Assembly (NCBI GenBank): GCA_021159445.1
Contig: JAGGRV010000409.1
Span: forward strand, 1 to 35,823
Direction of reading: 5' to 3'
Source of the DNA: Deltaproteobacteria bacterium
GTDB lineage: Bacteria > Desulfobacterota > Dissulfuribacteria > Dissulfuribacterales > UBA3076
Length of the DNA stretch: 35,823 bases
The notes beneath the pieces are model-generated. The model was not told the DNA's origin and made no database searches. It saw nothing but the letters and a program-made list of their open reading frames with translations. Below are positions 2,141 through 31,000 of the stretch, in pieces. The position numbers and the translations under genes were made by a program. Position 1 is the first letter of the stretch; every line of letters starts with the position of its first letter.

Positions 2141-2901
2141 CACCACGTGACTTCTAGAGCCTTTACCTCGCAATAAACCGTTACATCGCTCGTGAGCACG
2201 TCCGTGACAGTAAACACCACGGACGCCTTAGTGAGTAGGCCGTACCTGTTCAAGTCCGTCCACTCGCCAGTTAAGTCCGTCGCCGTTAGCTCGACTGTTT
2301 CGCCGTTGCGTTTGTAGAGCACGAGCTTGACGGAGACACCGCTAACGGTCTGGTACCAGACCCTAAGCAACATAACGTAGTTACCTGCGTTCTCAGGCTC
2401 TATATCGATAGAATATGATGTATCTATTGGCTCGTACGCGGGGATAGTTATCTCGTGCCTCGTGTGCTGTACGTCGACGAAGCCGAACTGTGTCAGGAAC
2501 GTGTAGGGGTCTGCTATCGAGACGCCCAACATCTTCGCTATGTCGACCATCGCGTCTTTGTCGAGTCCTAGCATCGCGAAGTAGTTGAAGATTGCGTTCG
2601 CGTGCTTGTTTACTGTCTCGCCCCCGTGGTGCTGGAGCACGTACCACAGGCGCTCGGCGAAGGAGACGTACTGCTGGGTCTTGGCGTACTCGTTCGGGTA
2701 CCTCTCCAGCACGCGCCTGACTATCGAGAGGATGTTGCTGAACTGAACCTGGTACTCCACCACGCGCTCCTTAGCGAGGGGCTTGACATTGTCGATGACC
2801 TCGCCTATGACGTCGCCGCGCATCTTAACGTCCCACATCCTGATCCTGCCAACAGGGGACTGGTCTATGGACCTCCTACGCCTCCTCCCCATCCGAACCA
2901 C
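2140..2901 (-). CDS. Capsid-protein paralogue: N-terminal domain homologous to the 124-aa protein at 5138..5512, fused to a beta-rich C-terminal domain
   Basis: VGRIRMWDVK...YVSFAERLWYVLQHHGGETVNKHANAIFNYFAMLGLDKDAMVDIAKML aligns without gaps to IDRIRKYEVK...LYLAFARKLYKHVSRTGGEAASKVASGLKSYFVTAYGADPAILDEIINVV. The N-terminus has a basic GRRRRRS arm. Confidence 0.6.
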   Translation of the reverse strand: MVRMGRRRRRSIDQSPVGRIRMWDVKMRGDVIGEVIDNVKPLAKERVVEYQVQFSNILSIVRRVLERYPNEYAKTQQYVSFAERLWYVLQHHGGETVNKHANAIFNYFAMLGLDKDAMVDIAKMLGVSIADPYTFLTQFGFVDVQHTRHEITIPAYEPIDTSYSIDIEPENAGNYVMLLRVWYQTVSGVSVKLVLYKRNGETVELTATDLTGEWTDLNRYGLLTKASVVFTVTDVLTSDVTVYCEVKALEVTW

Positions 2902-2906
2902 CCCAT

Positions 2907-3500
2907 TTACCTAGTTATTGTGATCTTGTACACGACACGCACCTTGTCCCCCGCCTTCGCACTTACAGGCGTCGACAGGACGTCCCTGAAGATCAGGAAA
3001 GCCGCCGACGACGGCACGAAGTCGCCGAGGGTCGGGTCGAACACCTGCGCGCTGCACATCAGCTTCGCACCTACCTCACTCACGTCCACGTTCGTGTCAA
3101 CAGGGATCACGCCAGTCACGACGAAGCTCATTTCTGTGTCGCCGAACGTGACGTCCTCTATGCTGGCGTCGGCGCACCCGATCTCGGCCTCTAGCTTGTA
3201 GTCGCTGTTTGAAGGCGCGGTCGTGCCCGTGCCTATGCAGACCCTAGTCTTGAAGTCGCCCCAGTACGCATAGTCCCAGCAGTCGACCGAGTTACCCGTG
3301 ACAACAATCGCTGACTGACCACTTTCCTCGGTCAAGCCTGAGACAGACTTCGTTGAGCCCTGCGCGACACTAAGAAGCACCACCTGGAAAAGCCTGATGA
3401 AGTTGTCGAGTGTCAGGTTGATCTCCTGCACGCGCCTGTCCCTAACCCTGTCACACGCGTCAAGAACCTCAACAACCAGGGTACCTGTCACGCGCGCCAT
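2907..3500 (-). CDS. Putative structural protein, paralogue A of a tandem pair
   Basis: Shares NLxLxNF, CWD, GTGTTAPxxxDxKL and FRDVLSxxxxxxAGDxxxVxYxIxIxR with the adjacent ORF 3507..4106. Confidence 0.6.
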   Translation of the reverse strand: MARVTGTLVVEVLDACDRVRDRRVQEINLTLDNFIRLFQVVLLSVAQGSTKSVSGLTEESGQSAIVVTGNSVDCWDYAYWGDFKTRVCIGTGTTAPSNSDYKLEAEIGCADASIEDVTFGDTEMSFVVTGVIPVDTNVDVSEVGAKLMCSAQVFDPTLGDFVPSSAAFLIFRDVLSTPVSAKAGDKVRVVYKITITR

Positions 3501-3506
3501 ACCCGA

Positions 3507-4106
3507 TCACCTCTGTATATTGATCTGGTAAGTAACCTCGATACGGTCACCCGCGTACACGTCAAGGCCATCCGAAAGCACGTCCCTAAAGAACAAGATC
3601 CTGTTAACCTCGTACGTGTCCGCCGTCGGCACATACGTCCCAGCCTCTAGCGAGAGCCCGATCTCCCAGACCGTGGCGTTGCTAGGTATGTCGATGTAGC
3701 CCCCTATCTTGATGTAGGGCGGGGACGCAGATAGGTCAACCTCTGTCACGTCGGCCGTGCCCTCCGCAAGCTTCGCATAGAGCTTGCAGTCTGTCGGTCC
3801 TGGCGCAGTGTTGTCCGTCCCGCACTCGACATAGTACTGCTTCGGCGCAAGCGAGCAGAAGTCCCAGCAACCAGGTGCGTTACCGATCATGAACTGACAC
3901 ACGTCACCGTCCTCGGCCGTGAAGCTCCCCACGTACGCGTACTGCCCCTTGTTGACGCCGCCGAACAACGTCCTCAGCAGGTACAGGAAGTTGTTGAGTA
4001 CGAGGTTTGCTGGCTGCTCCCTACGTTCCCTGAGCTTACCGTCGCGCGTATAAACCTCAACAATCACTTTCGACGTGATTTGGAGGCCTTTACCCATGGG
4101 GTTCAC
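3507..4106 (-). CDS. Putative structural protein, paralogue B of a tandem pair
   Basis: Collinear similarity to 2907..3500 over the full length (199 vs 197 aa). Confidence 0.6.
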   Translation of the reverse strand: MNPMGKGLQITSKVIVEVYTRDGKLRERREQPANLVLNNFLYLLRTLFGGVNKGQYAYVGSFTAEDGDVCQFMIGNAPGCWDFCSLAPKQYYVECGTDNTAPGPTDCKLYAKLAEGTADVTEVDLSASPPYIKIGGYIDIPSNATVWEIGLSLEAGTYVPTADTYEVNRILFFRDVLSDGLDVYAGDRIEVTYQINIQR

Positions 4107-4125
4107 CCCACGAAAGAGAATTGTT

Positions 4126-5070
4126 CTAGCTAGATAAAACCTTTGTCACGGTATAGGACACGCTAACGCCTGGGCCCTGCACACTAACGCCAGGGTACCT
4201 CACGCTCCCGCTAACACCCAGTGAAGGCCCAGACACGTCCACGCGCGGGTACCTGGTCTCGTACGCTATGCTAAGCGAGGGTCCAGAGACGTTGACTCGC
4301 CACCACATATGCAGTTCCAGGCCTACGGTAAGCGACGGGCCCGACACGTCGACACGCGGGTACCTCGTTGTCGGGGACACTGATATTATTGGTCCTGAGA
4401 CGTCGGCGCGCGGGTACCTGTAGGCGTAGGACACGGCTATTGAGGGGCCAGGCACCGACACCAGCCTATACACTATCGTGAGTAGCGAGACAGTAAACTT
4501 CGGGCCGGTCACGTCCGTGCGCGGGTACCTGAGCCAGGGACGTACGCGAAACCTCTTGATATATCCTAATTTATTATATTGTATATAGCTCTGCACCGAC
4601 ACCCTCACGTCTATGCCCGAAACGAACGCGAGCACGTGCTCAAGCGCGTCCGCAAGCTTCCTCAGGAACGTTATCTGGCTGTTCACGTCCTTCGCGGACA
4701 CGTAGTCGCCGTAGCTCACGTAACGCATGTTTACTGTCTCGCTACTGAGAGCGGAGTAGTCACTCCGTAGCCACGGCCTGGACAGTACAAGTCGGTAGAA
4801 CCAGTCGGTGACAGCCCTCGCGTTGTCGACCCTGTCGTTGTTGTCCTCTGGCAGGATCACGTCGATTAGGTTACGCACGCGCCTGAGCGTCTTAAGCTGA
4901 GGCGGGTCTAGCTTGGGCGGGAGCGAGTCGAAGAACTGCTTAACCACGTCCCAGGCCTCGGCGAGGATGTTGTGGTGCTGAGCGTCCACCACCTGCCCGT
5001 GCCTGACCTCACCCAACCTAGAAAGGACCTTGCGCAGTCGCTTAACGTGCTCGACAGACATCCCAAACAC
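4126..5070 (-). CDS. Repeat protein: helical N-terminal half plus 7 tandem repeats of R(YP)RVDVSGPSLxVS (15-22 aa) in the C-terminal half
   Basis: RYPRTDVTGPKF, RLVSVPGPSI, RYPRADVSGPII, RYPRVDVSGPSL, RVNVSGPSL, RYPRVDVSGPSL, RYPGVSVQGPGV. Repeats of CGCGGGTACCT are visible at the DNA level between 4190 and 4530. Confidence 0.65.
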   Translation of the reverse strand: MFGMSVEHVKRLRKVLSRLGEVRHGQVVDAQHHNILAEAWDVVKQFFDSLPPKLDPPQLKTLRRVRNLIDVILPEDNNDRVDNARAVTDWFYRLVLSRPWLRSDYSALSSETVNMRYVSYGDYVSAKDVNSQITFLRKLADALEHVLAFVSGIDVRVSVQSYIQYNKLGYIKRFRVRPWLRYPRTDVTGPKFTVSLLTIVYRLVSVPGPSIAVSYAYRYPRADVSGPIISVSPTTRYPRVDVSGPSLTVGLELHMWWRVNVSGPSLSIAYETRYPRVDVSGPSLGVSGSVRYPGVSVQGPGVSVSYTVTKVLSS

Positions 5071-5085
5071 CTAAGGAATGTGTGT

Positions 5086-5121
5086 AGGGAAAAAAGAGGG
5101 GTTTTTGAGAGGGGAAAAACC
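5086..5121 (-). terminator. Hairpin plus T-tract terminator downstream of the capsid gene
   Basis: Minus-strand reading: GGTTTTT-CCCCTCTC-AAAAACC followed by CCTCTTTTTTCCC. Confidence 0.5.
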
Positions 5122-5137
5122 TACCTAGCTAAGGGGG

Positions 5138-5512
5138 TTAGTACGGCACTGCGTAGCCGACGACAACGTTGATTATCTCGTCGAGGATCGCTGGGTCTGC
5201 GCCGTAGGCCGTCACAAAGTAGCTCTTGAGGCCGCTCGCGACCTTGGAAGCCGCCTCTCCGCCAGTCCTGCTAACGTGCTTGTACAGCTTCCTGGCGAAG
5301 GCCAGGTACAGAGCCTTCATCGTACCCGTGACACCGTACTTGTCCAGTATCGGCCTAACAAGGTCGTCTATGCCTGCGAACGTGATGAGACCCTCCTGAG
5401 CCCTCTCGATCGCCAGGTCCTTAACGTCGGTGAACCTGGTGCTGACGACGGTCGGGTTGAACTTGACCTCGTACTTCCTAATCCTGTCTATACCCTTCCT
5501 GTACATGGGCAT
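5138..5512 (-). CDS. Putative major capsid protein of the rudivirus/lipothrixvirus (SIRV2 P134-like) helical MCP family
   Basis: 124 aa. FNPTVVSTRFTDV and KYGVTGTMKALYLAFARKLYKHVSRTGGEAASKVASGLKSYFVTAYGADPAILDEIINVVVG resemble, from memory, the SIRV MCP pattern (FSNPTVASTILSNV ... YGITGPNRAIYQGFGLK...GGGPALVNMINGLKGYYISAFNANPQVLDAVVNIITG). It has its own terminator. Confidence 0.6.
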   Translation of the reverse strand: MPMYRKGIDRIRKYEVKFNPTVVSTRFTDVKDLAIERAQEGLITFAGIDDLVRPILDKYGVTGTMKALYLAFARKLYKHVSRTGGEAASKVASGLKSYFVTAYGADPAILDEIINVVVGYAVPY

Positions 5513-5608
5513 ACCCTACGACCCCCCAAACCTCTTTTCTTCGGTAAAGACCTAACCAAAGAGATTATTTATCCAAGAGTCGCAACGCACATTATGGAGG
5601 TGTTGACT

Positions 5609-5971
5609 ATGTCGGGTTCTTCCCCAGACACGAGAAAGAACGGTTCCAAACCCGAACACGACATGAAGCTGCTGCAGTACATCACGTTCGCGCTCCGCGA
5701 ACTCGAGATAGTAAACAAGTTCTTCCTGTACAGGACACGCAGGATAGCGCAGGCCGGGCTCCCGATCGTGGCAAGCACGTACATGTTCAGGGACGGCCCG
5801 AGCGTTTACCTTGTGTGCGCACTGCACTGTTTCCCGAGCAACGAGTCGCTCGCGCAGGTGATGAAGGAACTTGCCAAGCTCGAGCGCGTCGACAGGTACA
5901 GGATAAAGAAAGAACTTAACTTGGAAGAATTCGAGGAATATCTTTCGGAGGTGGAAGAGGATGGCGGTTGA
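5609..5971 (+). CDS. Hypothetical protein (120 aa)
   Basis: This is the C-terminal part of ORF 5276..5971. The ATG at 5609 is preceded by GGAGGTG. The upstream extension overlaps the capsid gene on the opposite strand. Confidence 0.55.
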   Translation: MSGSSPDTRKNGSKPEHDMKLLQYITFALRELEIVNKFFLYRTRRIAQAGLPIVASTYMFRDGPSVYLVCALHCFPSNESLAQVMKELAKLERVDRYRIKKELNLEEFEEYLSEVEEDGG

Positions 5972-6131
5972 GGCATATACCGTGATCCTCCCCAAGCCAG
6001 TCGCGGAGAAGCTGAAGCAGATAGCGGACAGGTACGGGCTAACAATAAACGATGTCTTCGCTATGGCGATTAAGGAGTTGCTGGAGAAAGAGGAGAAAAG
6101 AGAGGGAAAGAGGAGGGGGGTTAGGGCATGA
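5961..6131 (+). CDS. Ribbon-helix-helix (CopG/Arc-like) DNA-binding protein, 56 aa
   Basis: My own translation, below the ORF-track cutoff: MAVEAYTVILPKPVAEKLKQIADRYGLTINDVFAMAIKELLEKEEKREGKRRGVRA. It has a beta strand, helix, turn, helix layout. The stop overlaps the next start as ATGA. Confidence 0.6.
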   Translation: MAVEAYTVILPKPVAEKLKQIADRYGLTINDVFAMAIKELLEKEEKREGKRRGVRA

Positions 6132-14492: not shown

Positions 14493-14789
14493 ATGACCAG
14501 GAAAGAGTATACAACAATATTGATTAGTAAAGAAGACCGTGACCTGCTCAAGAGGTACAGGGAGGCGGGTAGGTGGCGCGGGATCGCCGAAATGGTCGTC
14601 GACGTAATAAACCGGACAGGGTGCAAAGAAGACGAGCTACCTCAGTGGTACGGGCCCAGGTGCCCACACTGCGAAGGTCCATTATCGCAAAAGTTCGCCA
14701 GCGCAAGGCTCGTGTGTCTACGTTGCGGGAGGGAGTACGAGCTCAGGGAGGTTAAGCCCGTGCGATACAGTAAACAGGGCGGTGGCTAG
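14493..14789 (+). CDS. Ribbon-helix-helix plus C-terminal zinc-ribbon protein
   Basis: TTILISKEDRDLLKRYREAG...GIAEMVVDVI forms the RHH layout. CPHC ... CLRC forms the zinc ribbon. Confidence 0.6.
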   Translation: MTRKEYTTILISKEDRDLLKRYREAGRWRGIAEMVVDVINRTGCKEDELPQWYGPRCPHCEGPLSQKFASARLVCLRCGREYELREVKPVRYSKQGGG

Positions 14790-14792
14790 CAC

Positions 14793-15110
14793 ATGGTTTA
14801 CTGCCCCCTGTGCGGGAAGAAACTCGAGGGTTTGGCCTGGAGACTGCGCGTGTGTAAAGCCTGTAAAGTGATCTATACCGTCCTCGAGGACTCGGAGTAT
14901 GGCGACCTCTACTGCGTCGCGAAAGTCGCCGACCTCGAGAAACTAGAGCTCGAAGACATCATCGACGCGCTCAAGAAACTCGCGGACGAGGTCAAGGCAG
15001 ACGACGCCTGGAGCCAACTCGCTAAGGCTCTCGGGCAGTGGCTTGAGAGGTACCTGCTTAGCCTGAGCGGAGGCGGAGACAGTAAACAAGAGGGAACAGA
15101 GACGCGTTAA
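14793..15110 (+). CDS. Zinc-ribbon protein
   Basis: CPLCGKKL...CKACK at the N-terminus, with an acidic helical tail. Confidence 0.55.
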   Translation: MVYCPLCGKKLEGLAWRLRVCKACKVIYTVLEDSEYGDLYCVAKVADLEKLELEDIIDALKKLADEVKADDAWSQLAKALGQWLERYLLSLSGGGDSKQEGTETR

Positions 15111-15140
15111 ATATTCATTATTTTATTGTTTAGTTTAGTC

Positions 15141-17420: not shown

Positions 17421-17652
17421 TCTCTTCCTCACCTCCAACAACCTTCTTGTCTAGCCCAAGCTTCTTTAGCCTGGGGAGAACAACGTGCTCGTAGTAGTAC
17501 CTTACCGCCTCGTCGACGACGTCGGATTTCTTCACGCTCTTCACCTCGCCGTACTCGAGGAAGTTAGCTGCCTCAATCAGCCGCACCATCTCGTCAATAA
17601 GGCGCTTCGTCTCTTTCCTCACTACAATATATGTGTAGGGCTTCTCGGGCAT
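17413..17652 (-). CDS. Ribbon-helix-helix-like protein
   Basis: The likely start is MPEKPYTYIVVRKETKRLIDEMVRLIE, preceded by GGAGGTGGTGGG. The second helix is SDVVDEAVRYYYEH. Confidence 0.5.
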   Translation of the reverse strand: MPEKPYTYIVVRKETKRLIDEMVRLIEAANFLEYGEVKSVKKSDVVDEAVRYYYEHVVLPRLKKLGLDKKVVGGEEENE

Positions 17653-17977: not shown

Positions 17978-18006
17978 CGCACCAAAAACACTAAATTTTT
18001 GGTGCG
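17978..18006 (-). terminator. 11-bp-stem hairpin spanning the helicase stop codon (CGCACCAAAAA / TTTTTGGTGCG)
   Basis: Stem 17978-17988 and 17996-18006, loop CACTAAA. The stem includes a U5 tract in the minus-strand RNA. Confidence 0.4.
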
Positions 18007-19370
18007 AGGGCCCTCGGCAAAACGCGCCTGAACGCTGCCACGGCGTTCTGCAGTCCACGAACCTGTTCTATCTCGCAGTACTTCTCTATGTAGCTCCTGA
18101 AGAACTTGTGCGTCGCCTCGTACGCGCGTGCATCAAGCATTACGATAATGTGAGGCTTGCTGTGTACGCGAATGAACCTGAAGTAGGCCTGCACGTTCTG
18201 CGCCTGGCAAAGCAACTTGTTGAAGTCGGTGATGGGTGTCGAGAAAACTGTTGAGGCAGCGTCCTCGATGGCGGGGTGGAGCATCCTGAGCGGGTCGTGG
18301 TGTTGGAAGTCGCAGATCACGACGTCGCGGTCGAGCGAGAGTCCGCGGAACAGTTTGTTTCCAGGTACAATAATGACTACGTTGTGGTCGCGGGCCTTTC
18401 TGTAGTCGCCTCCCCAGTACGCGTCGATGCCTCTGCCGAGCAGGTAGTACCCGATTTTGTCGGCGAACTCGTTCTTTCGTGTCACTATACCGACTGTAAG
18501 CCCGTGCAGAACCGATTCCTCTGCAATGTCACCTATTGCCTGAAGATACTGCCTAAACCACTCACCCATCCTGTCCTCAACAAGCCTCTCGATGTTATAG
18601 ATGATGAATTGTTTCGCAACGTTACGCGTCCTCACCTCGTAGTACCTAGGTATGTACCTGAACTGTAGGAGCGACTCGAAAGGCTTCTTCCATGTCGCGC
18701 TCAGGAACACAATGAGCGGCGCTTTAAGCACCGAAATCCTGAACCAGTACCGCCTCGTCGACGGGTCGTAGTACCACTTCTTAACTATGTGTTTAGCTAT
18801 TTCCTTATCTATCTCGTCACCTTCCTCCAACATCTTGTTTACCGTCTCTTCGTCTATGCTAAAGTTGCTTAGGCTATTGATAAGTTCCTCCGCCTCGTCA
18901 ACAATGATCACGTCTGGCCTAGTAACTGCGTTAACGAGCGGGAGAAGAAGGTGTGTCGTAACGATTACGCCTCCGCGCAAGGAAAAAGCAATGAGTTCCC
19001 TGATCTGCTTAACGAACGGGCACTCGCTGCATGTGCCAGCCCTCTTAAACTCGAGGCATTTCCGCACGTACCTAAGCCAGTCCTCGGTGTCGACACCCTT
19101 GAGTGGGCAATTCTCGAGTTCATCTTTTGCAACGAACTCGAAGGCCCTCATGCCGCGGTTCATGATTTCTATATATGCCCACTTCCGGAGCTGGCGCCTC
19201 GGTTCGCAAAAGATCACTACACTATTAAATTTATGTAATAAGGAAATTATTGAGCGTGTTTTGCCAGAGCCAGGCAGCCCCTGCACTATAGCTACAAGCT
19301 TAGTCCTCTTTCTCTCATGCAAAGTCTTAGCTATGTGTTCGAGCTTCGGCAACTCACTTACGCTTGGCAT
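17991..19370 (-). CDS. SF2 helicase, XPD/Rad3/DinG-like, with a putative 4-Cys Fe-S insertion
   Basis: Walker A GLPGSGKT and Walker B VIIVDEAEE. Four Cys lie between them (ENCPLKG ... RKCLEF ... GTCSECPF), as in the XPD Fe-S domain. The later FRGLSLDRDVVICDF resembles motif V. Confidence 0.65.
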   Translation of the reverse strand: MPSVSELPKLEHIAKTLHERKRTKLVAIVQGLPGSGKTRSIISLLHKFNSVVIFCEPRRQLRKWAYIEIMNRGMRAFEFVAKDELENCPLKGVDTEDWLRYVRKCLEFKRAGTCSECPFVKQIRELIAFSLRGGVIVTTHLLLPLVNAVTRPDVIIVDEAEELINSLSNFSIDEETVNKMLEEGDEIDKEIAKHIVKKWYYDPSTRRYWFRISVLKAPLIVFLSATWKKPFESLLQFRYIPRYYEVRTRNVAKQFIIYNIERLVEDRMGEWFRQYLQAIGDIAEESVLHGLTVGIVTRKNEFADKIGYYLLGRGIDAYWGGDYRKARDHNVVIIVPGNKLFRGLSLDRDVVICDFQHHDPLRMLHPAIEDAASTVFSTPITDFNKLLCQAQNVQAYFRFIRVHSKPHIIVMLDARAYEATHKFFRSYIEKYCEIEQVRGLQNAVAAFRRVLPRALAPKI

Positions 19371-20502
19371 TTAACCACCTCCAGAACCTCATAACCTCCA
19401 GCTTCACCTTCCCGAAGCGCGAAAGCAGAAGCGTCACGAAGTTGTGGTCGCAGTCGAGCCTCGTACAGAGTCCGACGCGCTTCAGCACGCACGCGCCCCT
19501 GTGGTCAAGGCCCCAGTAACAGTAGCGCCAGCCCTGCGTCACGGCGGGCCTCGTGTTCGCAGGGTCCTCACCCTGGACGTCCCAGAGAAACTCCGCGAAC
19601 TCCTCCACGTGCCTCGAGTCAGCGTTGATCATCCTGAGCGCCGCACCGAGGTTGTATTCGACTATGCCCCATGTCGACCGGCAGTGCTTCACGTCGCTAC
19701 TCGTCCTGTAGTCCCTGTACGGTACTATCCATTTCTTCTCCTTAAGTAGAGACTTCAGAACCCTGTAATAACCTTCGCAACCGAGCCTCTTAGCGATGTA
19801 CATCAGGCACGCGACAGCCTCGACCCAGGACCTCCACGAAACGCCGCCGACAGTAGCGATTTCTCCTTTCGGCGCAAGCGACCCGTTTACTGTGTGCCTT
19901 TCCTCAGCCGCGGCGTAGAGGACCTCGATCCCGAACGACCTAAACACCCACTCGACCTCCCTCAACGTAGCGAGACCCTCGAAAGGCCACGGCGCGTCAG
20001 GGTGCTTCCTGTACCTAAACACCTTACCCTCTGCACGTAATGCGCTGGGCGCCGCTATGACGTACCCGAACGTCTTAACGTCGTATGGGTACCTGAAACG
20101 TAGCCTGGCACCGAGCTCGTCAGAACCCGCCTTCAACACCACGTGGACACCACCGCTCGCGGTGAACTCCACGTAGGCGCCTTCGCGTGCGAGCAGGTTC
20201 CACAGGCTCTCGAAACGCTTCACAGGCACCTTCTCGGCGTCGAAGTCGAAGATCACGAGGTAGTTAGGGCCTCCAGGCAGTCCGTAGGCAAAGGCCCTGC
20301 CGCTACGTATGTTCTCGACGGCCCTCTCAGTCACAGACCTCCAAACAGCAAGGTTCGTCTCGGTAGGCTCGTACCTTATGCCCTTGGGGAGTATAGGCGC
20401 CTTCGCCTCGTCCAGGGTCTTTCCCCTGCCTCTGACGCTAAGTATATAAAAACCGCCCTCAAACAGTTTCTCGACTACCCAACGCAGGCTTACCTGACCC
20501 AT
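19354..20502 (-). CDS. Bifunctional primase-polymerase (PrimPol, archaeo-eukaryotic primase superfamily)
   Basis: AEP motif I is LVIFDFDAEK (DxD), motif II is TASGGVHVVL (sGGxH) and motif III is YDVKTFGYVIAAPS. The likely start is MGQVSL at 20502, after GGGAGG. The 3' end overlaps the helicase start by 17 nt. Confidence 0.8.
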   Translation of the reverse strand: MGQVSLRWVVEKLFEGGFYILSVRGRGKTLDEAKAPILPKGIRYEPTETNLAVWRSVTERAVENIRSGRAFAYGLPGGPNYLVIFDFDAEKVPVKRFESLWNLLAREGAYVEFTASGGVHVVLKAGSDELGARLRFRYPYDVKTFGYVIAAPSALRAEGKVFRYRKHPDAPWPFEGLATLREVEWVFRSFGIEVLYAAAEERHTVNGSLAPKGEIATVGGVSWRSWVEAVACLMYIAKRLGCEGYYRVLKSLLKEKKWIVPYRDYRTSSDVKHCRSTWGIVEYNLGAALRMINADSRHVEEFAEFLWDVQGEDPANTRPAVTQGWRYCYWGLDHRGACVLKRVGLCTRLDCDHNFVTLLLSRFGKVKLEVMRFWRWLNAKRK

Positions 20503-20561
20503 CCTCCCAACCCCCCGCACCCACTTCCTAAGCCAAGACAATACACAATAAACAAAATAAA

Positions 20562-21432: not shown

Positions 21433-21927
21433 GTGGTCAAGTACCTTCTCCTTGGTGTCTCTGCTTTGTCAGGCGTCGTCGGCGTCGAGTTCAAGGGCAC
21501 GATAAAGAAGTCGCTGTTCGAGGACGTCGTTGACGCTCTTAGGGAGGGTAGGGACATCACGAAGGAAGTTTCAAGAATCTACAAGGAGGTTAACGTAACA
21601 CTGCACGAGCTGGTGCCAATGGGTTCGACGGTTGCACGTGCACTGAAGGATGACAAAGTCGTAGCGTATGCTGTCATTAGCAAGGCTGTTTCGGTGCATA
21701 TCGTCATAGCGTCAATCTACAGTGAAAAGAGGACGGTTGTGGTTATTACGCCAGGGGCACCGAACGATGCCTACGTCCTAAAGGCGTTAGAAACTGTCAT
21801 GCACCGCCTGGTACCAGGGAGCACTGTCGAGGTCTTTGTCGCTGGCTGGCGCAGATACGCAAAGCTGGACGAAGTGATCGTTGAGATACCGAAGAAGGGT
21901 AACGAGACAGTAAACATGTTCCTGTAG
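21433..21927 (+). CDS. Hypothetical protein with an N-terminal hydrophobic (signal/TM-like) segment
   Basis: MVKYLLLGVSALSGVVGV. GTG start after AGGAGGTGA. The C-terminus carries the ETVN 12-mer. Confidence 0.55.
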   Translation: MVKYLLLGVSALSGVVGVEFKGTIKKSLFEDVVDALREGRDITKEVSRIYKEVNVTLHELVPMGSTVARALKDDKVVAYAVISKAVSVHIVIASIYSEKRTVVVITPGAPNDAYVLKALETVMHRLVPGSTVEVFVAGWRRYAKLDEVIVEIPKKGNETVNMFL

Positions 21928-21933: not shown

Positions 21934-22335
21934 TTGGGGAACGTGGCCGATTACGTCCGCGAGTTCAAGATAGAGAGAATTCATAACGATATTCTGGAGG
22001 TGTTAGACCACGGTACAAGGATAAACCTTGATATCAACGGCGAGCCGTTCTGGCTGCGTTTCAGCATATACCCCGACGCCGATGGCAACAGGTACCTTAT
22101 CGTTGTGTGCAGCGACCCGCACGTGCATGAGTTTAGCGCAAGGATGGTGAGGCTTCCCGACGACCTCGCAAAGGCTGTGACAGAGTGCGAGTGGTTGGAC
22201 AGCAACGCGCTGAGGGAGCTCTGGGAGCGGTTAATGGCAAGGGCCTACGGTGATCCGCCAGGTTACTTCGACGACTTCGTCGACGAGATACTGAAGTGGC
22301 TAAGGGACACGTGCATAAAGAAACAGAGGCAGTAA
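21934..22335 (+). CDS. Hypothetical protein
   Basis: ORF of 133 aa. Start uncertain (TTG at 21934 or GTG at 21943). The stop codon TAA is supplied by the motif variant GAGGCAGTAAAC at 22326. Confidence 0.55.
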   Translation: MGNVADYVREFKIERIHNDILEVLDHGTRINLDINGEPFWLRFSIYPDADGNRYLIVVCSDPHVHEFSARMVRLPDDLAKAVTECEWLDSNALRELWERLMARAYGDPPGYFDDFVDEILKWLRDTCIKKQRQ

Positions 22336-22375
22336 ACACACCTTTCTTTCGCCTTTTTCTTCCCCGTTTCCTGAG

Positions 22376-22732
22376 GTGATACACGTGTTCTGCAGGTTCC
22401 TTGCTGATAAGGTCATTCAGATGTATGAGGATGTCGACGCGTTCCTTGCGTGGCTAAGGGACTTGGAGAGGACGAACGGCTTCAAGGTGCGTATCAGCGA
22501 CGGGTACATTGCTGTGCAGGGCCAGATCACCGTCGGCCTGTCGCCGATGGTTGAGCCTCCGTTGAACTACGTTATGTTAGTGCTTGCGGTCTTCGGCGAG
22601 GTCGGTGTTTACTTGCCAGACTTTGGAGATGGGTATGAGGCAGTAAACAAGTGGTGGAGAGAGAACAAGGACAGGTTGCCCAAGCTAGTGAAGCAAGCGC
22701 TCGAGAAACTGAAACAACACCACAAACCTTAA
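22376..22732 (+). CDS. Hypothetical protein
   Basis: ORF of 118 aa, with a GTG start at 22376 or ATG at 22421 (MYEDVDAF). Confidence 0.5.
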   Translation: MIHVFCRFLADKVIQMYEDVDAFLAWLRDLERTNGFKVRISDGYIAVQGQITVGLSPMVEPPLNYVMLVLAVFGEVGVYLPDFGDGYEAVNKWWRENKDRLPKLVKQALEKLKQHHKP

Positions 22733-23044: not shown

Positions 23045-23056
23045 GGGGTGTGAGAA

Positions 23057-23320: not shown

Positions 23321-23643
23321 TGGCCTGCAAGGAGATGTGTGAAGAGATGTATGTGTTTGACAGCTACAATCCTGAGGTCGGGATTTGGTTTCCAGAGTTC
23401 GTTGAAAAGGTCTGGCGCGAGGCGCAGAACATAAAGAAGGCGCTCCAGTTGGAGCCTGTTGCGACAGTGATTTCAGCGATAAGCGATTACACTGACATTT
23501 ACGTGGCTTGGCTTGACGACGAGAGGCTCTTAGTTGTCGTCCCAGACGCTGAGTATGCAAAGGTTGTCCACAGCAAGGAGGAGATGAACGAGGCTCTCAG
23601 GGAGGCCTTGATGAGCATAGGTGCGCTCTATTCATCTCCATAA
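23320..23643 (+). CDS. Hypothetical acidic protein
   Basis: ORF of 107 aa, TAATG overlap with the upstream gene, followed by a T-rich terminator (23645-23670). Confidence 0.5.
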   Translation: MACKEMCEEMYVFDSYNPEVGIWFPEFVEKVWREAQNIKKALQLEPVATVISAISDYTDIYVAWLDDERLLVVVPDAEYAKVVHSKEEMNEALREALMSIGALYSSP

Positions 23644-23757
23644 ATTCCCTTTTTATTTTTTGTTTGTTTGGTGGTGAAAGAGTTTTCTGGTTTCTCTTTT
23701 TGTCCGTGGCTTCGCGCATTAGCAACGAATATTTTTGTGCGTTGCTTCCTATAGCGT

Positions 23758-24810
23758 ATGAGGCGTCTCGTGATCCTAGTCAGCAAGGGAGTTTCGTTGA
23801 AGAATGTCGGTGCTGACATTGCGGACGTGGCGAGCGAGAGTGGCTGGGTTGTGCGTCCTGTGTCGGCGATTGCTTCGCCGCACGACGTCATTTCCATCGC
23901 GGACGCCGCCATAATCGTGATGCCTGTTAATCCCGTCGCGGCGGCGCCGTACATGTTGCTTGCTAGGGATCTCAGGGTTAGGAAGTTCCCTGTGGTCTAC
24001 TACGGGCCTGTGGAGGGTAGGCCTAGCCCGCTCGCTATACAGAAGTGGATGCTTGGCAGCTTCCCGATTGTCGCCCCTAGCGAGTACGTTAGGGACAAGC
24101 TCGTTGAGGTGGGGTTCGGCGTCGTCGACGTGGTTAGGCACGGTGTTAACCTTAGGCTTGTGGAGCGTAGCAAGCCGTACTTCGCGATGGCCAGGAACAA
24201 GGTGCGTAGGGGCCTCGAGAACAAGGTCGTGTTCGGTACCGTCGCCTTCTACCACGTCCGGAAAGGGCTTGAGCGGTTGGCGGACGCTATCCGCCTAGTT
24301 ACGCAGGAGGTAAAGGACGTACACTTCATCATTGTCACGACTGACAGGGGCAGGCTCAAGCTCGGCGACCTGCCAAACACCACGATAGAGACCGCGTTCG
24401 GTGCACGCTCAAGGCAGGAGGTGTTTGCGTGGTATTCAGCGCTCGACTGGGTAATTATCCCGTCGCTCGCGGAGGGGTTCGGCCTGCCTTTGATAGAGGC
24501 TAACGCGGTTGGGGCACCTGTCATCCACAACGCCTTGCCTCCGCTCATGGAGATAACGGACGAGACAGTAAACATTGTGTTCCAGTTCGACAACGTGTAC
24601 GAGAAGAACGTGGGGGACGGCATCGTTTACGAGATGCACGACTACAACCCAGAGCGCCTTGCCAAGGCTATCCTGAAGGCGTACGACGAGACAGTAAACG
24701 CCAGGGACGAGTACGTAGAGAGGAAGAAGCGAGCGATCGAGCACGCGCGCAGGTACGACATCAGGAAGCTGTATCCGCACCTGCTCAAGCTACTTAGCGA
24801 GGTGACGTAG
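23758..24810 (+). CDS. Glycosyltransferase, GT-B fold, GT1/GT4-type
   Basis: IPSLAEGFGLPLIEANAVGAPVIH is the classical E-x7-E Glycos_transf_1 signature. The preceding VFGTVAFYHVRKGLERLADAI is typical of the C-terminal Rossmann domain. Confidence 0.8.
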   Translation: MRRLVILVSKGVSLKNVGADIADVASESGWVVRPVSAIASPHDVISIADAAIIVMPVNPVAAAPYMLLARDLRVRKFPVVYYGPVEGRPSPLAIQKWMLGSFPIVAPSEYVRDKLVEVGFGVVDVVRHGVNLRLVERSKPYFAMARNKVRRGLENKVVFGTVAFYHVRKGLERLADAIRLVTQEVKDVHFIIVTTDRGRLKLGDLPNTTIETAFGARSRQEVFAWYSALDWVIIPSLAEGFGLPLIEANAVGAPVIHNALPPLMEITDETVNIVFQFDNVYEKNVGDGIVYEMHDYNPERLAKAILKAYDETVNARDEYVERKKRAIEHARRYDIRKLYPHLLKLLSEVT

Positions 24811-24811
24811 C

Positions 24812-26184: not shown

Positions 26185-26203
26185 ATGTTTTTTGGTTGGG
26201 AGC

Positions 26204-27532
26204 ATGACGTTCCTTACGCGCAGGTACCTCGAGGAACTGACCAAGCAAAAGGAGAAGTACTTTAGCAAGGTCGTTAGTGACGACGCTGTCTACGTCAATT
26301 GGCTTAGGACCTACGACACTGCGGACGTGTTTTACGAGCGTATGCTGCAGGCGCTTACGCTCGCGGACTACTACAACATTAGCTTCATACTGTTGTTCGC
26401 CGAGAACCCGAGCGTTGTCGAGCCCCTCAACATCGAGTTTTCTGTCTCGCTCCCGTCGATAGAGGAGATCCTGCAGGGGATCTACGCGGTTTTCGAGAGC
26501 GTCGACCTCTCCATAGAGTTCCCTGGGCAGATCGACTACCCCAGCTTCGTCGACTACAACATCAGGCCTGAGTACCGTGACCAGGCGAAGGAGCTTGAGA
26601 AGGTGAAGGCGAGGTATGGCATAACCCGCTACGGCGAGGGAGTCTACGACCCTGTCATCGTTGCCGAGTTCGTCCGCAACGTGATCACGCGTTACTGGAT
26701 ACAGTTCCTGGACAGGGAGCTGTTCAGGCGTTGGCTGCAGGAGTACGGTGCGAAGCTGGGTATAGCCAGCGAGGTTCAGGAGCTGGTGTGGGACAGGCTC
26801 GGGTTCGTCGACGTTGCGACCCAGGGCCCGTTCATACTCGGTTTCAGTCGCTTAGGCGAGGGCTGGCTCGTGCCCGAGGGACACGAGTTCGAGCGCGTCC
26901 TTGTCGAGCGTCTAGACGGCGAGATTGTCGAGGTCCCTGTGAGGGAGCCCGACGACTACCACCACGGGTTTGTGCTCGGCGTCAGCAGGCTAGGCTACGA
27001 CATCCTGTCCCCGCGCGGCTCGGCGTTCCTGACGCCTCTCCCGCAGGTGCTTGACGTGATACGCACCAAGGAGTTCAGGCTGCGTAGCAGGTACGTACAC
27101 ACCGCGACCGCCTTCGCCAACTACGTGACTGCCAGGGAACTAACTAGCCCGCACAGGTGCGCGAGGATACACCAGTACCATACCCTACGTATCTACATGC
27201 TGTTCGCTGAGGAAGTCGCCGAGCGCGTGTGTCGCAAGTACAGACTGGACAAGTACACGTGCAACAGGTACCGGACGGCCGCAAGGAACCTACTCGCTCT
27301 TGGACTTAGGCGCCATAGGTGGGGAGAGGAGCCTCTGCGCAACATAGACCTCGACGAGCTTAGGGTGCTGTGGATAGCGAGGTGGGTGAAAGAGGGTTTA
27401 AAAGAGGATATTCTGAACGAGATTTTCGAGGGGTGTAGGCCATGGCTTCAGCACCTGAGAAGCCTCAAGTACCAGGTGGGGGAGCTGGTGAAACAAACGC
27501 GAATATCGCTGGCGAGCTACAGAAAGAGATAA
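26204..27532 (+). CDS. Large hypothetical protein (about 442 aa)
   Basis: ORF 26192..27532, likely ATG at 26204 (MTFLTRRYLEEL). No motif recognised. Confidence 0.6.
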   Translation: MTFLTRRYLEELTKQKEKYFSKVVSDDAVYVNWLRTYDTADVFYERMLQALTLADYYNISFILLFAENPSVVEPLNIEFSVSLPSIEEILQGIYAVFESVDLSIEFPGQIDYPSFVDYNIRPEYRDQAKELEKVKARYGITRYGEGVYDPVIVAEFVRNVITRYWIQFLDRELFRRWLQEYGAKLGIASEVQELVWDRLGFVDVATQGPFILGFSRLGEGWLVPEGHEFERVLVERLDGEIVEVPVREPDDYHHGFVLGVSRLGYDILSPRGSAFLTPLPQVLDVIRTKEFRLRSRYVHTATAFANYVTARELTSPHRCARIHQYHTLRIYMLFAEEVAERVCRKYRLDKYTCNRYRTAARNLLALGLRRHRWGEEPLRNIDLDELRVLWIARWVKEGLKEDILNEIFEGCRPWLQHLRSLKYQVGELVKQTRISLASYRKR

Positions 27533-27699
27533 CGCAGACCATCGCGAACTTAATAATCAAGGCACAGGAGCTGGGGTTTGAGCTCGCGACGTGCGAGTGC
27601 CCGCACGCTAACTCCTGCGAAGTCGTTAAGAAGGCTAGGGAGGTCGTTAGGGAGATTAAGCGCTTGGTTGCTATCCAGAGGAGGTTGGTCACGCGCTAA
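27442..27699 (+). CDS. Hypothetical small protein overlapping the upstream gene by 91 nt
   Basis: ORF of 85 aa with a single possible start, after GAGGGGTGTAGG. Helical, contains CECPHANSC. Confidence 0.4.
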   Translation: MASAPEKPQVPGGGAGETNANIAGELQKEITQTIANLIIKAQELGFELATCECPHANSCEVVKKAREVVREIKRLVAIQRRLVTR

Positions 27700-27732
27700 A
27701 ACCATATTTTTTATTTTCGGATATTTACACAC
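27697..27732 (+). promoter_or_regulatory. BRE/TATA promoter, probably giving a leaderless mRNA
   Basis: TAAAACCATATTTTTTATTTTCGGATATTTACACAC lies immediately upstream of the ATG at 27733. Confidence 0.5.
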
Positions 27733-28005
27733 ATGGTTTCCAGGCCGAAAGAGGTTATTCTAACCCCTTTCGCTCTGAGAATCGGCAAGGACGTCGTCAT
27801 CATCCTAGAGGTGATTCCGATAAGGGATGTCCGAGGCGAGGAACGGTACATCGTGGTAGTCACCGCGAAAGGCTCCAGGCCGTTTAGCTTGGTCGTCAAG
27901 GACATGGAGGAGCTGGAGATGAAGCTTAGGGCGGAGCTCGCTAAGGTGAAGCTTATGGAGATGGCGATCGACCCCGTCCTGCTCAACAAGTACCTCGGGA
28001 GGTGA
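27733..28005 (+). CDS. Hypothetical protein
   Basis: ORF of 90 aa. The stop overlaps the next start (TGATG). Confidence 0.55.
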   Translation: MVSRPKEVILTPFALRIGKDVVIILEVIPIRDVRGEERYIVVVTAKGSRPFSLVVKDMEELEMKLRAELAKVKLMEMAIDPVLLNKYLGR

Positions 28006-31000
28006 TGGGCGTGCCCCAGCACGTGCCTGACGAACTGTTTACTGTCTCGACAGAGGAGGCAAGGGAGGTCGGTGAGTTAGTAGCGAACATACTCGTGATC
28101 GACATCGAGGAGGCGCGCAAGATAGACCTGAGGCAAGTCGCGAGCGGAACGGCGGGAATCGTAGACCCGATAGGGCAGCTCCAGGCTTGGCTCGCAGACC
28201 AACTCAACGCTCTGGTAAGCGTCATAGTTACCCCGCTGAGCCAGGCTCTCGAGACCGCCAAGGACTGGCTCTATACGCAGATTAGTAACGCGGTGTCTGG
28301 CTTCGTAGACACTATAATAAATACATTTAATGAAATTATTAAGCCCGTTTCGGAGACAGTAAACACCATCTGGACAGGCCTAAACACGCTTATCTCGGCC
28401 ATAGGCGAGCTAAGCAACACGTTCCTCGAGGGCCTTGCCAAGATCGTGGACACTGTCACGAAGGGGTTCACGGAGCTCGGTTCGGTGCTGACGGGCTTCG
28501 TTAACGCAATAATGCAGTTCCCGAACTGGTTCCCCGAGTGGTTCCAGAAATACATCTCGGAGCCGATAGCTAACGCGCTAAGCACGTTGCCGACGGTCTT
28601 TGCGCAGTCGGTCTCTGCGGTCATAGCTACGATAGTTTCGCAGTTGGAGACGTTGTGGAGGTACTTGAGCGACGCTGCCAAGTTCGTGTGGGACAAGCTG
28701 GTGGAGTTCGGTGCGTGGGTGGCGGAGAAGCTTGTCGAGGCAGCTAAGGCGTTCTACAGCTTCCTCGTGGACGCGTCTGCGTCGTTTGAGTCGTTTGTGA
28801 AGGACGTGTTCACGGGCCTGTTCCAGACGGCGTCCGCGTTCGCAGACGCAATGAAGGACTGGCTCGCGAAGGCGCTGAGGGGCGAGGCCGGCGAGCTAGA
28901 CGTCTACATCGGCGTGTCTGGCGTGATACTGAGCGGTTGGTTAGCGGCCATCTCGCTTCCGCGTCTGCTCAAGTCCCTCGCGGGCACGCTCAGGGGCATG
29001 AGGATACCGATCATCGGCGTGTCGCCGGCGTACATAGCGTACGAGGTCGGCGACTACCTTGAGAACCTGATCCACCAGTACGGTAGGCACACGTTGATGG
29101 GCTGGGCACTGGTCGCGTTCGAGCCCCTCCGCTACGTTTGGAGGGGCATCTGGAAGAGGTTCTTCGAGTCCATCGGCTTCGCAGACATACCGTTTGCGTT
29201 GCCTGAGCTGAGCCACGTGAGGGACGTGATCAGGCGCTCGATGGTGTGGGTAGAGGACTTTGCTAAGCTTGTCAAGGGCGAGTTGCCTGACGCGTTCAGG
29301 GACATGTACGAGAGGGCGAAGCTCGTGCTGGAGATGAGGGGGTTCCCGACCTGGTTCATCGAGTACTGGCTAGACCTCGGCCAGAAGTACAGCATGACCG
29401 TCAAGGACAGGTTCGGTACCGAGAGGCTGATGCTGCTCGGGCCCGTCTGGACGGTGCCGACGCACAGTGAGGCAGTCAGGATGCTCCAGAGGGACGTGTT
29501 CCAGTCACCTATGGAGTGGGCGAGGTTCGTAAGGATCTACGGCTGGAGCGAAGACCTGGCCAAGATGTACTACATGCTCTCGTTCAAGTACCCGAGCTTC
29601 AGGGACCTCTGGGCCTTCCTCACGAGAGGCATAGCGGGGATGCTGTGGTATCGCGCACCTGACTTCGTCAAGCGCATCTTCGAGGCCGACGCTAAGTGGC
29701 TGGGCGCCGGCACCCCCGTCGACCCGTACCAGCTAAACTACGACTACAATGCCTTGTTCAGCGCAGTCAACATCTACGCCAAGTGGATACAGATGAGCAA
29801 CTTTAGCTGGTTCAGGAAGGGTGCGAAGCTGAAGTACGGCGACCAGGAGATCACCATCGACTTCGACTGGACGGCGGACAGCTGGCTAACGTTCGACATC
29901 ACGGCGGACATACCGGGCAAGATCGATGCTAGGTGGATGGTTAAGTGGGGCCTGTTCGACCACCTCACGCTCAAGATAGGGAGGAAAGTCGGTGAGGTGT
30001 CGACGTACCCAGAGGAACCGTTCGTTGACTTGGTGCTTAAGGTGCTCGAGAACCAGGCAACGAGCAATGTTGTTATGGACCTCAGGCCGTTTTGCCGCCT
30101 GCTAGTAGCTAACGGCCTACATCCCGCGTGGGTTCCGCTGACTGCTGTCGCCGAGGCCATCAACGCCTTGGCCGACGAGCGTACGCTTCTGAGGACAGGC
30201 TTCATTAACCTGTTCAAGGAGGGGTTCTTCAGCTACGAGACCCTGGACAAGCTGTTGGAGGGCTTCGTGATCGCGTCGTTCATAGTCGAGTACTTCGACG
30301 TGGCGAGTAAGAAGTGGGTTGCTGGCGCCGTGAATGTCCCTGTCAGGTACCTGCCTGCTGAGCGCAGGTTGCTGGAGCTTAGGGCCGTGATGGACAGGGC
30401 CCTTGACATCTTGCGCGACTTCGTGCGTGAGCTCGCGCGTGCCTACCGCGAGTACATCATCAGGGACGTTGACGGGTTCGTTAAGCTCCTTGTCGGCGGC
30501 GTCGAGACAGTAAACACGTGGTTCAGGAAGCTCATGAAGGACATCACGGGCAAGGAGCTTGCGCTCGTGACAGACCTCGACTACTGGAGGGCCTACGCCG
30601 TCGTTCTCCAGCTGGAGCAGCAGGTGTACACGATCCACAGGATGAGGTACTGGGCAAGCAGGTACATCGGCTGGATCCTGTACCGCCTTGCCTACGGCTA
30701 CGTCAGCATAGAAGACGCTAAGAAAGTCATCGAGCTCGTCGGCCAGGCCTGTATGTTGACGCCTCAGGAGATCCAGCTCCTTGAGCAGCTGAGCGAGCTC
30801 CTCATGGGTATCGCGCGCAGGGAGTACATACCGACGCCGTCCCAACTCGCTACGATAGCGGAGGTCGTGCCTGAGGCTAGGGAACTGTTCCCCAAGGTCG
30901 TGGAGGCGAGGAACATACCTGCGGAGTGGGCCGAGATCTGGTGGAAGTACGTGCAGCTGAAGCCGTTGGTCGACGACGTCAGGAGGTACCTGAGCGTGGT

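Follow-up and report, generated by a model that had tools for sequence, protein, structure and literature searches.

The 13-nucleotide (nt) word GAGACAGTAAACA is dispersed over the 35,823 bp of contig JAGGRV010000409.1 (GenBank assembly GCA_021159445.1; hereafter the window, meaning this whole stretch of DNA), and it is a signal at the level of DNA, neither a motif of the peptides nor an element that was inserted. To judge from its sequence, the window, which is filed under a Deltaproteobacteria bacterium, represents a filamentous virus that infects hyperthermophilic archaea, is related to the rudiviruses and lipothrixviruses and has not been cultivated; its linear genome is complete.

Copy number, form and placement of the word

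The 12-nt core of the word, GAGACAGTAAAC, is present in 13 exact copies, seven on the plus strand and six on the minus strand, which corresponds to a density of 0.36 exact copies per kb. From 100 dinucleotide-preserving shuffles the expected number of exact copies is 0.00. Twelve further copies carry one mismatch, where about 0.1 are expected, and 35 sites lie within two mismatches of the core, against an expectation of 3.2. A preliminary description of this DNA had given the same number of exact copies, and all of them lie where it placed them. The copies are identical in independent NCBI, JGI, ENA and Logan assemblies from several samples; the JGI, ENA and Logan versions represent the same genome at an identity of at least 99.94%, with every copy intact.

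The 12-mer is followed directly on its 3' side by an A in 11 of the 13 exact copies (p = 3e-5) and in 11 of the 12 with one mismatch, so that the conserved word has 13 nt. It is optionally preceded by S, giving (S)GAGACAGTAAACA; the base on the 5' side is C or G in 12 of the 13 exact copies, which is not significant against the composition of third codon positions. Apart from these adjacent bases, the 24-nt flanks on either side of the exact copies are unrelated. The edges of the word are sharp, and exact copies are about as numerous as those with one mismatch.

All 13 exact copies lie inside open reading frames (ORFs), in a genome that is about 88% coding by our gene calls, so that only one or two intergenic copies would be expected. 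Their spacing is random-like, with a maximum gap of 6.8 kb and a standard deviation of gap lengths typical of random placement. Nine of the 13 point outward, a pattern that gene orientation also yields, the background predicting 61-65%. In other respects the copies are scattered at random along the genome and between its two strands.

The exact copies are listed below together with the residues that they encode and the outcome of alignment to homologues. Of the relatives named, L133 and L134 come from the same sampling project and share about 63% protein and about 65% nucleotide identity with the window, while L256 is closer, at 92% protein identity in the capsid paralogue.

2608..2619, minus strand: ETVN in 2140..2901(-), a capsid-protein paralogue; no gap against the paralogue or orthologues
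4487..4498, plus strand: antisense, FTVS in 4126..5070(-), within an 18-aa repeat RYPRxDVSGPxxxVS; no gap against its own repeats, nor against the L134 orthologue, which has ISVL
4729..4740, minus strand: ETVN in 4126..5070(-); HYTR in the L134 orthologue, no gap, 1/12 nt in common
10724..10735, minus strand: ETVN in 10445..11839(-), a 464-aa protein; no homologue found
13340..13351, minus strand: ETVN in the Cas4-like PD-(D/E)XK nuclease 13193..13915(-); no gap against P0036 and six other homologues, YRETVNKA lying over YEEALRRA
15076..15087, plus strand: G-D-S-K-Q in 14793..15110(+)
21904..21915, plus strand: ETVN, four codons before the stop of 21433..21927(+); retained in the strain contigs L129 and L131
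24562..24573, plus strand: ETVN in the GT4 glycosyltransferase 23758..24810(+); no gap in four orthologues; GAA GCA GTC AAC (EAVN) in L133, 9/12 nt in common
24688..24699, plus strand: ETVN in the same glycosyltransferase, 23758..24810(+); no gap; TTG GCA GTG AAC (LAVN) in L133, 8/12 nt in common
28037..28048, minus strand: antisense, FTVS near the start of the 1168-aa structural protein 28002..31508(+); IVIS in L001 and L133, no gap
28353..28364, plus strand: ETVN in 28002..31508(+); no gap; GAC GTG GTC AAC (DVVN) in a relative, 7/12 nt in common
30504..30515, plus strand: ETVN in 28002..31508(+), its Asn invariant in the family; no gap; TCC GCA GTC AAC (SAVN) in a relative, 7/12 nt in common
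32987..32998, minus strand: antisense, FTVS in 32772..33251(+), a 159-aa protein; no gap

The pressure acts on DNA

Tabulation of the reading frames gives nine copies read as ETVN (GAG ACA GTA AAC), one as xDSKx and three that read FTVS in antisense, in agreement with the preliminary description, in which nine of ten co-oriented copies encode ETVN, the tenth GDSKQ and the three antisense copies FTVS. The nine ETVN copies had been assigned to nine unrelated proteins. The host proteins are indeed mutually unrelated in an all-against-all BLASTP comparison; they number seven, the glycosyltransferase and the 1168-aa protein carrying two copies each. With unrelated flanks and host proteins that lack mutual similarity, a repeated protein motif or duplicated domain can be discarded as the origin of the copies.

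ETVN occurs ten times in the proteome, where 0.11 occurrences are expected, and nine of the ten use the same four codons, including GTA, which makes up 13% of Val codons, and ACA, which makes up 25% of Thr codons. A synonymous-codon shuffle that preserves every protein yields 0.21 +/- 0.43 copies of the 12-mer with a maximum of 2, and since 13 are observed, the pressure acts on DNA and not on the peptide. Nor are the peptides conserved: at the positions of ETVN and FTVS, orthologues carry DVVN, SAVN, EAVN, LAVN, EALQ, EALR, HYTR, IVIS or ISVL. At 32987 the residues VFTVS are the same in a relative, which encodes them as GTC TTT ACC GTG TCA where the window has GTG TTT ACT GTC TCC, and three synonymous differences create the word. 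Peptide-level selection on ETVN is ruled out by the synonymous shuffle, the lack of conservation in orthologues and the antisense copies. The claim that selection acts on the nucleotide sequence, if widened to selection or drive, is thus borne out by the shuffle, the rare GTA codon and the synonymous differences at 32987.

The distribution of frames had also been offered as an argument, and here only part of the reasoning holds. The frames do differ from a uniform distribution over the five open frames (p = 2.8e-4), so that avoidance of stop codons alone does not describe them, but they equal what codon compatibility produces. From the product of codon frequencies, 63% of copies are expected to use the ETVN frame. 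Of the chance near-matches with four mismatches (n = 169), 46% use the ETVN frame and 16% that of FTVS, and 65% are in sense orientation, a background from which the exact copies do not depart (multinomial p = 0.54). The ETVN share is 9/13 against a background of 0.51 (p = 0.16), and the sense share 10/13 against 0.61 (p = 0.18). The word is purine-rich and has G at codon-first positions, which leads to its best fit with sense codons. Neither frame nor sense bias can be retained as an independent signal, both matching the background of near-matches with three to five mismatches. The dominance of the ETVN frame and the excess of sense copies arise because copies persist where the cost to the protein is lowest; the pattern marks where the word costs the protein least and says nothing further on mechanism. 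The alignments show such persistence at residues of low conservation and at places where the residues already present (often x-[A/V]-V-N, F-T-V-S) can be kept.

The word is overlaid on existing codons

With the exception of 10724, 15076 and 21904, every exact site was aligned with an orthologue, a paralogue or repeats of the same protein. The three sites in the large protein were compared with P0002, L001, L133, P0003 and others, the two in the glycosyltransferase with four orthologues, the one in the 159-aa protein with L001 and L133, that in the nuclease with seven homologues, and the two in the 314-aa protein with its own repeats and L134. For 2608, the true capsid protein, L134, L256 and P0188 served as aligned homologues. 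Because none of these ten sites shows a gap (0/10 with an insertion or deletion), the word is overlaid on existing codons. At most sites the window and the orthologue have 4-9 of the 12 bases in common, and the four ETVN sites in the glycosyltransferase and the large protein all lie on an ancestral V-N. As read from these alignments, base substitutions within codons that were already there gave rise to the copies in place, on one strand or the other.

Site 2608 offers a series. L134 (about 70% protein identity) has GAGGCCCTCCAG, read as GAG GCC CTC CAG and matching at 6/12 positions; L256 (92%) has GAGGCAGTAAAC, read as GAG GCA GTA AAC and matching at 11/12, with the same flanks as the window; and the window has the full GAGACAGTAAAC (12/12). 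The series is compatible with single base substitutions, that is, with ordinary stepwise change.

The preliminary description had held that the motif was written into existing codons without change of length, on the strength of two alignments. Both are correct. GGETVNKHA aligns without a gap to GGEAASKVA, and the partner, 5138..5512(-), is the true major capsid protein; GPKFTVSLL aligns without a gap as well and fits the repeats of about 18 aa in 4126..5070. The comparison with orthologues that it proposed extends the result, with substitutions and no clean 12-bp insertions at the ten sites, none of which is gapped. "Written into" therefore stands in the sense of substitution as opposed to insertion; there is no proof of active writing, and the 2608 series fits stepwise substitution.

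Relatives and lineage specificity

About 25 kb of L133 and L134 contain no exact copy and a single one-mismatch copy, and no other dispersed k-mer is found there. In L001, L002, L005, L007 and L008 no comparable dispersed k-mer was found either; their top k-mers are units of protein repeats with conserved flanks. A family-wide trait is accordingly rejected, these five and L133 and L134 all being without a comparable k-mer. On present sequences the word family is lineage-specific, partly present at 92% protein identity (L256) and absent at about 63%. By the same comparison, the family appears to predate the split from L256, and either arose after the split from L133 and L134 or was lost since.

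Other occurrences are incidental. A search for the two-copy pattern returned only L257 (31-294) and L258 (4703-5320), which carry the same 12-mer within tandem arrays with 42-126 bp spacing. Both are unrelated metagenome contigs of 43% G+C without similarity to the window, a coincidence with no link to the virus. A 28-mer metagenome scan gave no match, and a literature search for the 12-mer gave primer coincidences only.

The window and L134 also differ in gene content. At about 7816-9958 and at 10445-11839 the window has genes for proteins of 287, 341, 93 and 464 aa that are missing from the collinear region of L134; there the orthologue of 7283..7846 comes next after the Hjc gene. One of these four lineage-specific genes, that for the 464-aa protein, carries an exact copy. 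The replication modules differ too, with PrimPol and an ATPase in the window and a 779-aa protein in L134.

One-mismatch copies

The 12 one-mismatch copies are as follows.

2204..2215, plus strand: GTGACAGTAAAC, antisense, FTVT in 2140..2901(-)
5705..5716, plus strand: GAGATAGTAAAC, EIVN in 5276..5971(+)
6817..6828, plus strand: AAGACAGTAAAC, KTVN in 6676..7053(+)
7205..7216, plus strand: GAGACAGTCAAC, outside called genes
9576..9587, plus strand: GAGACAGAAAAC, of the T8A sub-family, antisense, FSVS in 8603..9628(-)
10416..10427, plus strand: GAGGCAGTAAAC, at the extreme 5' end of the Hjc resolvase ORF 10002..10433(-)
11846..11857, minus strand: GAGACAGAAAAC, just upstream of the start of 10445..11839(-)
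14764..14775, plus strand: GATACAGTAAAC, YSK in 14493..14789(+)
18837..18848, minus strand: GAGACGGTAAAC, ETVN kept, in the helicase-like 17991..19370(-)
22326..22337, plus strand: GAGGCAGTAAAC, its TAA being the stop codon of 21934..22335(+)
22637..22648, plus strand: GAGGCAGTAAAC, EAVN in 22376..22732(+)
26437..26448, minus strand: GAGACAGAAAAC, antisense, FSVS in 26192..27532(+); FEFQ in a relative, no gap

Three or four of the 12 lie at gene edges or outside genes. The copy at 10416 may be untranslated, since the Hjc orthologue of L134 starts downstream of the site. The copy at 22326 supplies the TAA of 21934..22335, as had been described. A sub-family, AGACAGAAAAC, with T changed to A at word position 8, has six copies (619, 9576, 11846, 20666, 26437 and 35194), and those at 619 and 35194 occupy mirror positions within the terminal repeats.

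The copy at 2204 lies within an 83-nt block (2183-2265) that is 100% identical to L134 at about 15036-15118, in a comparison that otherwise runs at about 65% identity. This is by far the longest stretch common to the two, and it ends at the edge of the locus. The block holds the one-mismatch copy in the loop of an 8-bp hairpin; L256 has GTGACGGTAAAC at the position of the copy. It looks like a recent recombination tract between co-occurring lineages, L256 showing ordinary synonymous divergence there. The hairpin at 2196..2222 (CGTCCGTG-ACAGTAAACAC-CACGGACG) was considered as a "master copy" and rejected as a conserved structure, L256 having non-compensatory changes in both arms of the stem.

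The genome and its other sequence features

The window ends in inverted terminal repeats of 777 bp (1-777 and 35047-35823) that are 95% complementary. At each end, the last 103 nt are made up of two 48-nt arms, perfect inverted repeats of each other, and a 7-nt loop (arms 1-48/56-103 and 35721-35768/35776-35823), apparently because the assembler read around covalently closed hairpin telomeres, as in rudiviruses. With hairpin ends at both extremes, the window would be a complete genome. Its G+C content is 54%.

Gene 5138..5512(-) encodes a major capsid protein of the type of Sulfolobus islandicus rod-shaped virus (SIRV; Sulf_coat_C, E = 1e-24), and 2140..2901(-) a capsid paralogue fused to a C-terminal domain. 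PrimPol (19354..20541) adjoins the helicase-like ATPase 17991..19370(-). The other genes include those for the Hjc resolvase 10002..10433(-), the Cas4-like nuclease, a B116-like domain protein (12405..13268), two GT4 glycosyltransferases, two Zn-ribbon proteins (798..1097 and 14493..14789), an S-adenosylmethionine (SAM) methyltransferase outside the DNA-methylase families, and the 1168-aa protein, whose homologues come only from hot-spring and hydrothermal metagenomes. A block of capsid gene, glycosyltransferase, proteins of about 440 and about 90 aa, and the large terminal protein is common to L002, L005, L007 and L008. Comparison of the window with phage records by megablast and tblastn found nothing similar, a search of viral_contigs found no relatives, a concatenated query of six proteins matched nothing, and the window holds no Rfam family and no tRNA.

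Several features stand apart from the word. The terminal repeats each contain about five copies of ACTGGTATRCCA, with the palindromic core TGGTATACCA, in a longer unit that contains AAACACTGGTATRCCAGTATAGAGCAGGGRAAC; they lie at 225-236, 261-272, 487-500 and 535-546, with mirror copies within 35278-35599 and one at 1287-1298 just outside the repeat. These copies are probably binding sites of a terminal or replication protein, as predicted from sequence. A part of the unit, GAGCAGGGAAAC, is loosely like the dispersed word (8/12). The sequence ACAGTAAAC may resemble archaeal origin-recognition boxes. Words with a palindromic core are enriched over the protein-preserving synonymous shuffle: GTCGAC (47 against 24.5 +/- 3.8), GGTACC (25 against 14.6) and CAGGTACC (17 against 4.9 +/- 2.2). 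Examples are CAGGTACC at 4248, 4413, 4524 and 30344/30346 and CGTCGACGA at 17510/17511 and 22277/22278. Viruses usually avoid restriction sites, and this enrichment runs the other way.

A small ORF at 31495-31758 overlaps the end of the 1168-aa gene, is 56% identical to the last 63 residues of its product (31311-31508) and also resembles an earlier repeat, residues 967-1045; to all appearances, the C-terminal repeat module of the 1168-aa protein is duplicated as a separate gene. The C-terminal half of 4126..5070 (4126-4560, minus strand) consists of seven degenerate repeats of about 18 aa, RYPRxDVSGPxxxVSxxx, which Tandem Repeats Finder missed at the DNA level and which the L134 orthologue has too. 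At 5276-5995 two ORFs overlap on opposite strands. Homologues in L134, L005 and L007 exist for only one of them, 5276..5971(+), whose 5' end also lies over the capsid gene 5138..5512(-); the other, 5552..5995(-), is probably no gene.

What might read the word?

We hypothesize, as a tentative but favoured reading and the most economical one, that the word is recognized on double-stranded DNA, that its copy number matters, as it does for uptake sequences, Chi or dispersed phage operators, and that it evolves in the manner of uptake sequences or Chi. A sequence-specific factor, encoded by the virus or by the host, would read the word as double-stranded DNA, and each extra copy would give the genome a small advantage or a transmission bias. 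The candidate roles of such a factor are self-marking of the genome, loading or priming of replication and recombination proteins, and moderation of a nuclease. Copies would therefore accumulate genome-wide, as DNA uptake sequences or Chi sites do in bacteria.

Several points weigh against this hypothesis. No reader protein was found, and Pfam searches of the window proteins revealed no sequence-specific DNA-binding domain linked to the word. The annotated candidates are generic only, namely the two Zn ribbons, the B116-like domain, the SAM methyltransferase of non-DNA type and the 464-aa protein. The last was tried as reader and set aside: its C-terminus is AbrB-like by eye with no Pfam match, and a single-sequence structure model has a predicted local distance difference test (pLDDT) score of 57 and no Foldseek match better than E = 0.09. 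Scans of viral_contigs and genome_contigs with the 14-mer returned random single matches among the matches listed. No copy is at a recognisable regulatory position. A set of only 13 sites may also hide weak rules of orientation, whether with respect to transcription or to the ends of the genome. Finally, a non-adaptive drive would leave the same footprint.

More doubtful, and rather unlikely as it is stated, is a narrower form of this hypothesis, in which an archaeal virus would for the first time be seen to carry a "genome identity word" resembling an uptake sequence or Chi: a lineage-specific 13-mer read on double-stranded DNA by a viral or host factor, with fast turnover of specificity. The fast turnover is suggested because the word is absent at 63% protein identity. 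The factor might tell viral from host DNA, or might load or prime the PrimPol-helicase replication and recombination machinery.

Non-adaptive molecular drive, which we consider unlikely, would have replication or repair copy one fixed short sequence into near-matching sites, with nothing reading the word; DNA primers of fixed sequence made by PrimPol and retained in the product, or short-patch conversion from a master copy, would be examples. The virus does encode PrimPol (19354..20541) beside the helicase-like ATPase, as well as the Hjc resolvase and the Cas4-like nuclease, and the sharp edges and the parity of exact and one-mismatch copies are as such a process would leave them. Site 4729, with 1/12 nt in common with its orthologue, looks as if the whole patch had been replaced, and the 83-nt tract identical to a 63% relative suggests that short-tract recombination between lineages is active. 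Conversion, however, finds no support in flanking homology, the hairpin at 2196..2222, the candidate master, is not preserved in L256, where it has changed without compensation, and the 11/12 intermediate at 2608 fits single-base steps. We know of no primase with primers of a fixed 12-13 nt sequence, which also counts against drive.

Mimicry of a host word is distinctly unlikely. It supposes that the word is over-represented in the host chromosome, for DNA import or self-recognition, and that the virus carries it as phages of Haemophilus and Neisseria carry uptake signal sequences (USS) and DNA uptake sequences (DUS). In its favour, conjugation-related DNA-import machinery reportedly exists in Thermoproteales, e.g. 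Pyrobaculum, but to our knowledge no sequence-specific uptake has been described in archaea. The coding-region properties of the word all match those of USS and DUS (PMC2817400). A 63% relative from the same sampling project, and possibly from the same host, is nonetheless without copies.

A signal read on RNA, be it an mRNA target of a guide RNA, an RNA-binding protein or a nuclease, or a translational signal, is very unlikely. The 10:3 excess of sense copies would suit it, as would the mostly sense orientation of the one-mismatch copies within genes, but that excess equals the near-match background of 61-65% sense (p = 0.18), three exact and several variant copies are antisense, all in one frame, and the window is without Rfam family or tRNA.

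That the word is the footprint of the capsid, either as a preferred or nucleating site of the capsid heterodimer or by setting the packaging register, is highly improbable. In these viruses the capsid proteins bind along the whole genome irrespective of sequence, which counts against a preferred site. The virus has two capsid-protein paralogues, and the word is about 12 nt long; in SIRV2 and in Acidianus filamentous virus 1 (AFV1) each capsid-protein dimer covers 12 bp of A-form DNA, with 12 bp per asymmetric unit in AFV1 (PMC5517147). Against this, the copies have no overall phase modulo 12, 11.2, 11 or 10.8 (Rayleigh R = 0.02 at 12), the sole nominal exception among 16 phase tests being the six minus-strand copies at period 11 (p about 0.03); conservation of the word extends over 13 nt; and the relative, whose capsid genes are the same (79% and 68% identity), carries no copies.

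A mobile 12-bp mini-element, or a process of clean 12-bp insertions, is hardly credible. Passages in PMC4390879 and PMC2738675, which cite Peng et al. 2004, describe 12-bp indels as common within ORFs of rudiviruses and lipothrixviruses, and the likeness is evident in the virus group, the 12-bp scale, the location in ORFs and the preserved frame. Those indels are length polymorphisms, whereas here a fixed sequence recurs without length change at the tested sites. Insertion is refuted for 10 of the 13 copies by the lack of any length difference at the testable sites (0/10), and at most sites orthologous bases continue through the word (4-9/12 nt); origin by insertion or mini-element is rejected on these grounds. 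We are aware of no conserved sequence reported for the rudivirus and lipothrixvirus indels. Equally hard to credit is an artefact of library-adapter remnants or assembly error: the first 7 nt of the word, GAGACAG, are the last 7 nt of the adapter AGATGTGTATAAGAGACAG (the 3' end of the Tn5/Nextera mosaic end), but the copies are in frame within long ORFs without length change, are preceded by C or G and not by the A of the adapter, recur in the independent NCBI, JGI, ENA and Logan assemblies of several samples, and have an 11/12 version at the orthologous site of the diverged relative L256.

Comparison with known systems

One of the closest likenesses is to USS of Pasteurellaceae and DUS of Neisseriaceae, asymmetric words of 9-12 nt that are hugely over-represented, on both strands and mostly in genes, with exact copies as common as one-mismatch copies or commoner. 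Their density is of the same order as the 0.36 exact copies per kb found here. In uptake sequences the preferred codons determine the frame, the sites occupy residues of poor conservation, and the peptides that they encode are enriched (Findlay and Redfield 2009, PMC2817400); the word in the window shares substitution at poorly conserved residues, a frame set by codon preference and peptide enrichment. It differs in its carrier, a 36-kb archaeal virus and not a competent bacterium, and in its absence from a fairly close relative. No competence genes were seen among the annotations of the window. Every coding-region property of USS and DUS that was tested is found here; the two features that define that family are uptake bias and enrichment in the cellular genome.

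Chi, the FtsK-orienting polar sequences (KOPS) and the SpoIIIE recognition sequences (SRS) are likewise short asymmetric words across coding DNA, selected because a DNA-processing enzyme reads them. Words of this type are about 8 nt long with a strong bias in replication orientation, whereas the present word has 13 nt, and no rule for its orientation was found other than coding compatibility. The window also lacks a reader of the RecBCD/AddAB or FtsK type, having only the Cas4-like PD-(D/E)XK nuclease, the Hjc resolvase and the AAA ATPase.

Stoperators of cluster A mycobacteriophages and C1 operators of phage P1 are asymmetric sites of about 13-17 nt, present in 15-35 copies per genome and bound by one phage repressor. 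They resemble the word in their similar length and their spread over a whole phage genome. These sites, however, lie mainly in short intergenic regions or at gene boundaries, co-oriented with transcription, whereas here 13/13 copies are inside genes and co-orientation shows no excess (10/13 against a background of 0.61, p = 0.18). Pfam searches matched no helix-turn-helix or ribbon-helix-helix repressor, and many window ORFs are without any match.

Significance

We know of no earlier description, for archaeal viruses, of a DNA word that is overlaid on coding sequence across a whole genome. The present case is a worked example of how the in-frame embedding of such a word follows from codon compatibility, with no special mechanism needed. 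Genome-wide words overlaid on coding DNA are known from a few bacterial systems (uptake sequences, Chi, KOPS, stoperators), and each of them led to a specific DNA-reading machine. The interesting question is what reads the word. Genes of archaeal viruses are mostly of unassigned function, and a clean, lineage-specific signal at the DNA level gives a direct experimental route to whatever binds it. If the word is a genome identity word, it would be a handle for a new system of sequence-specific DNA recognition in hyperthermophilic archaea.

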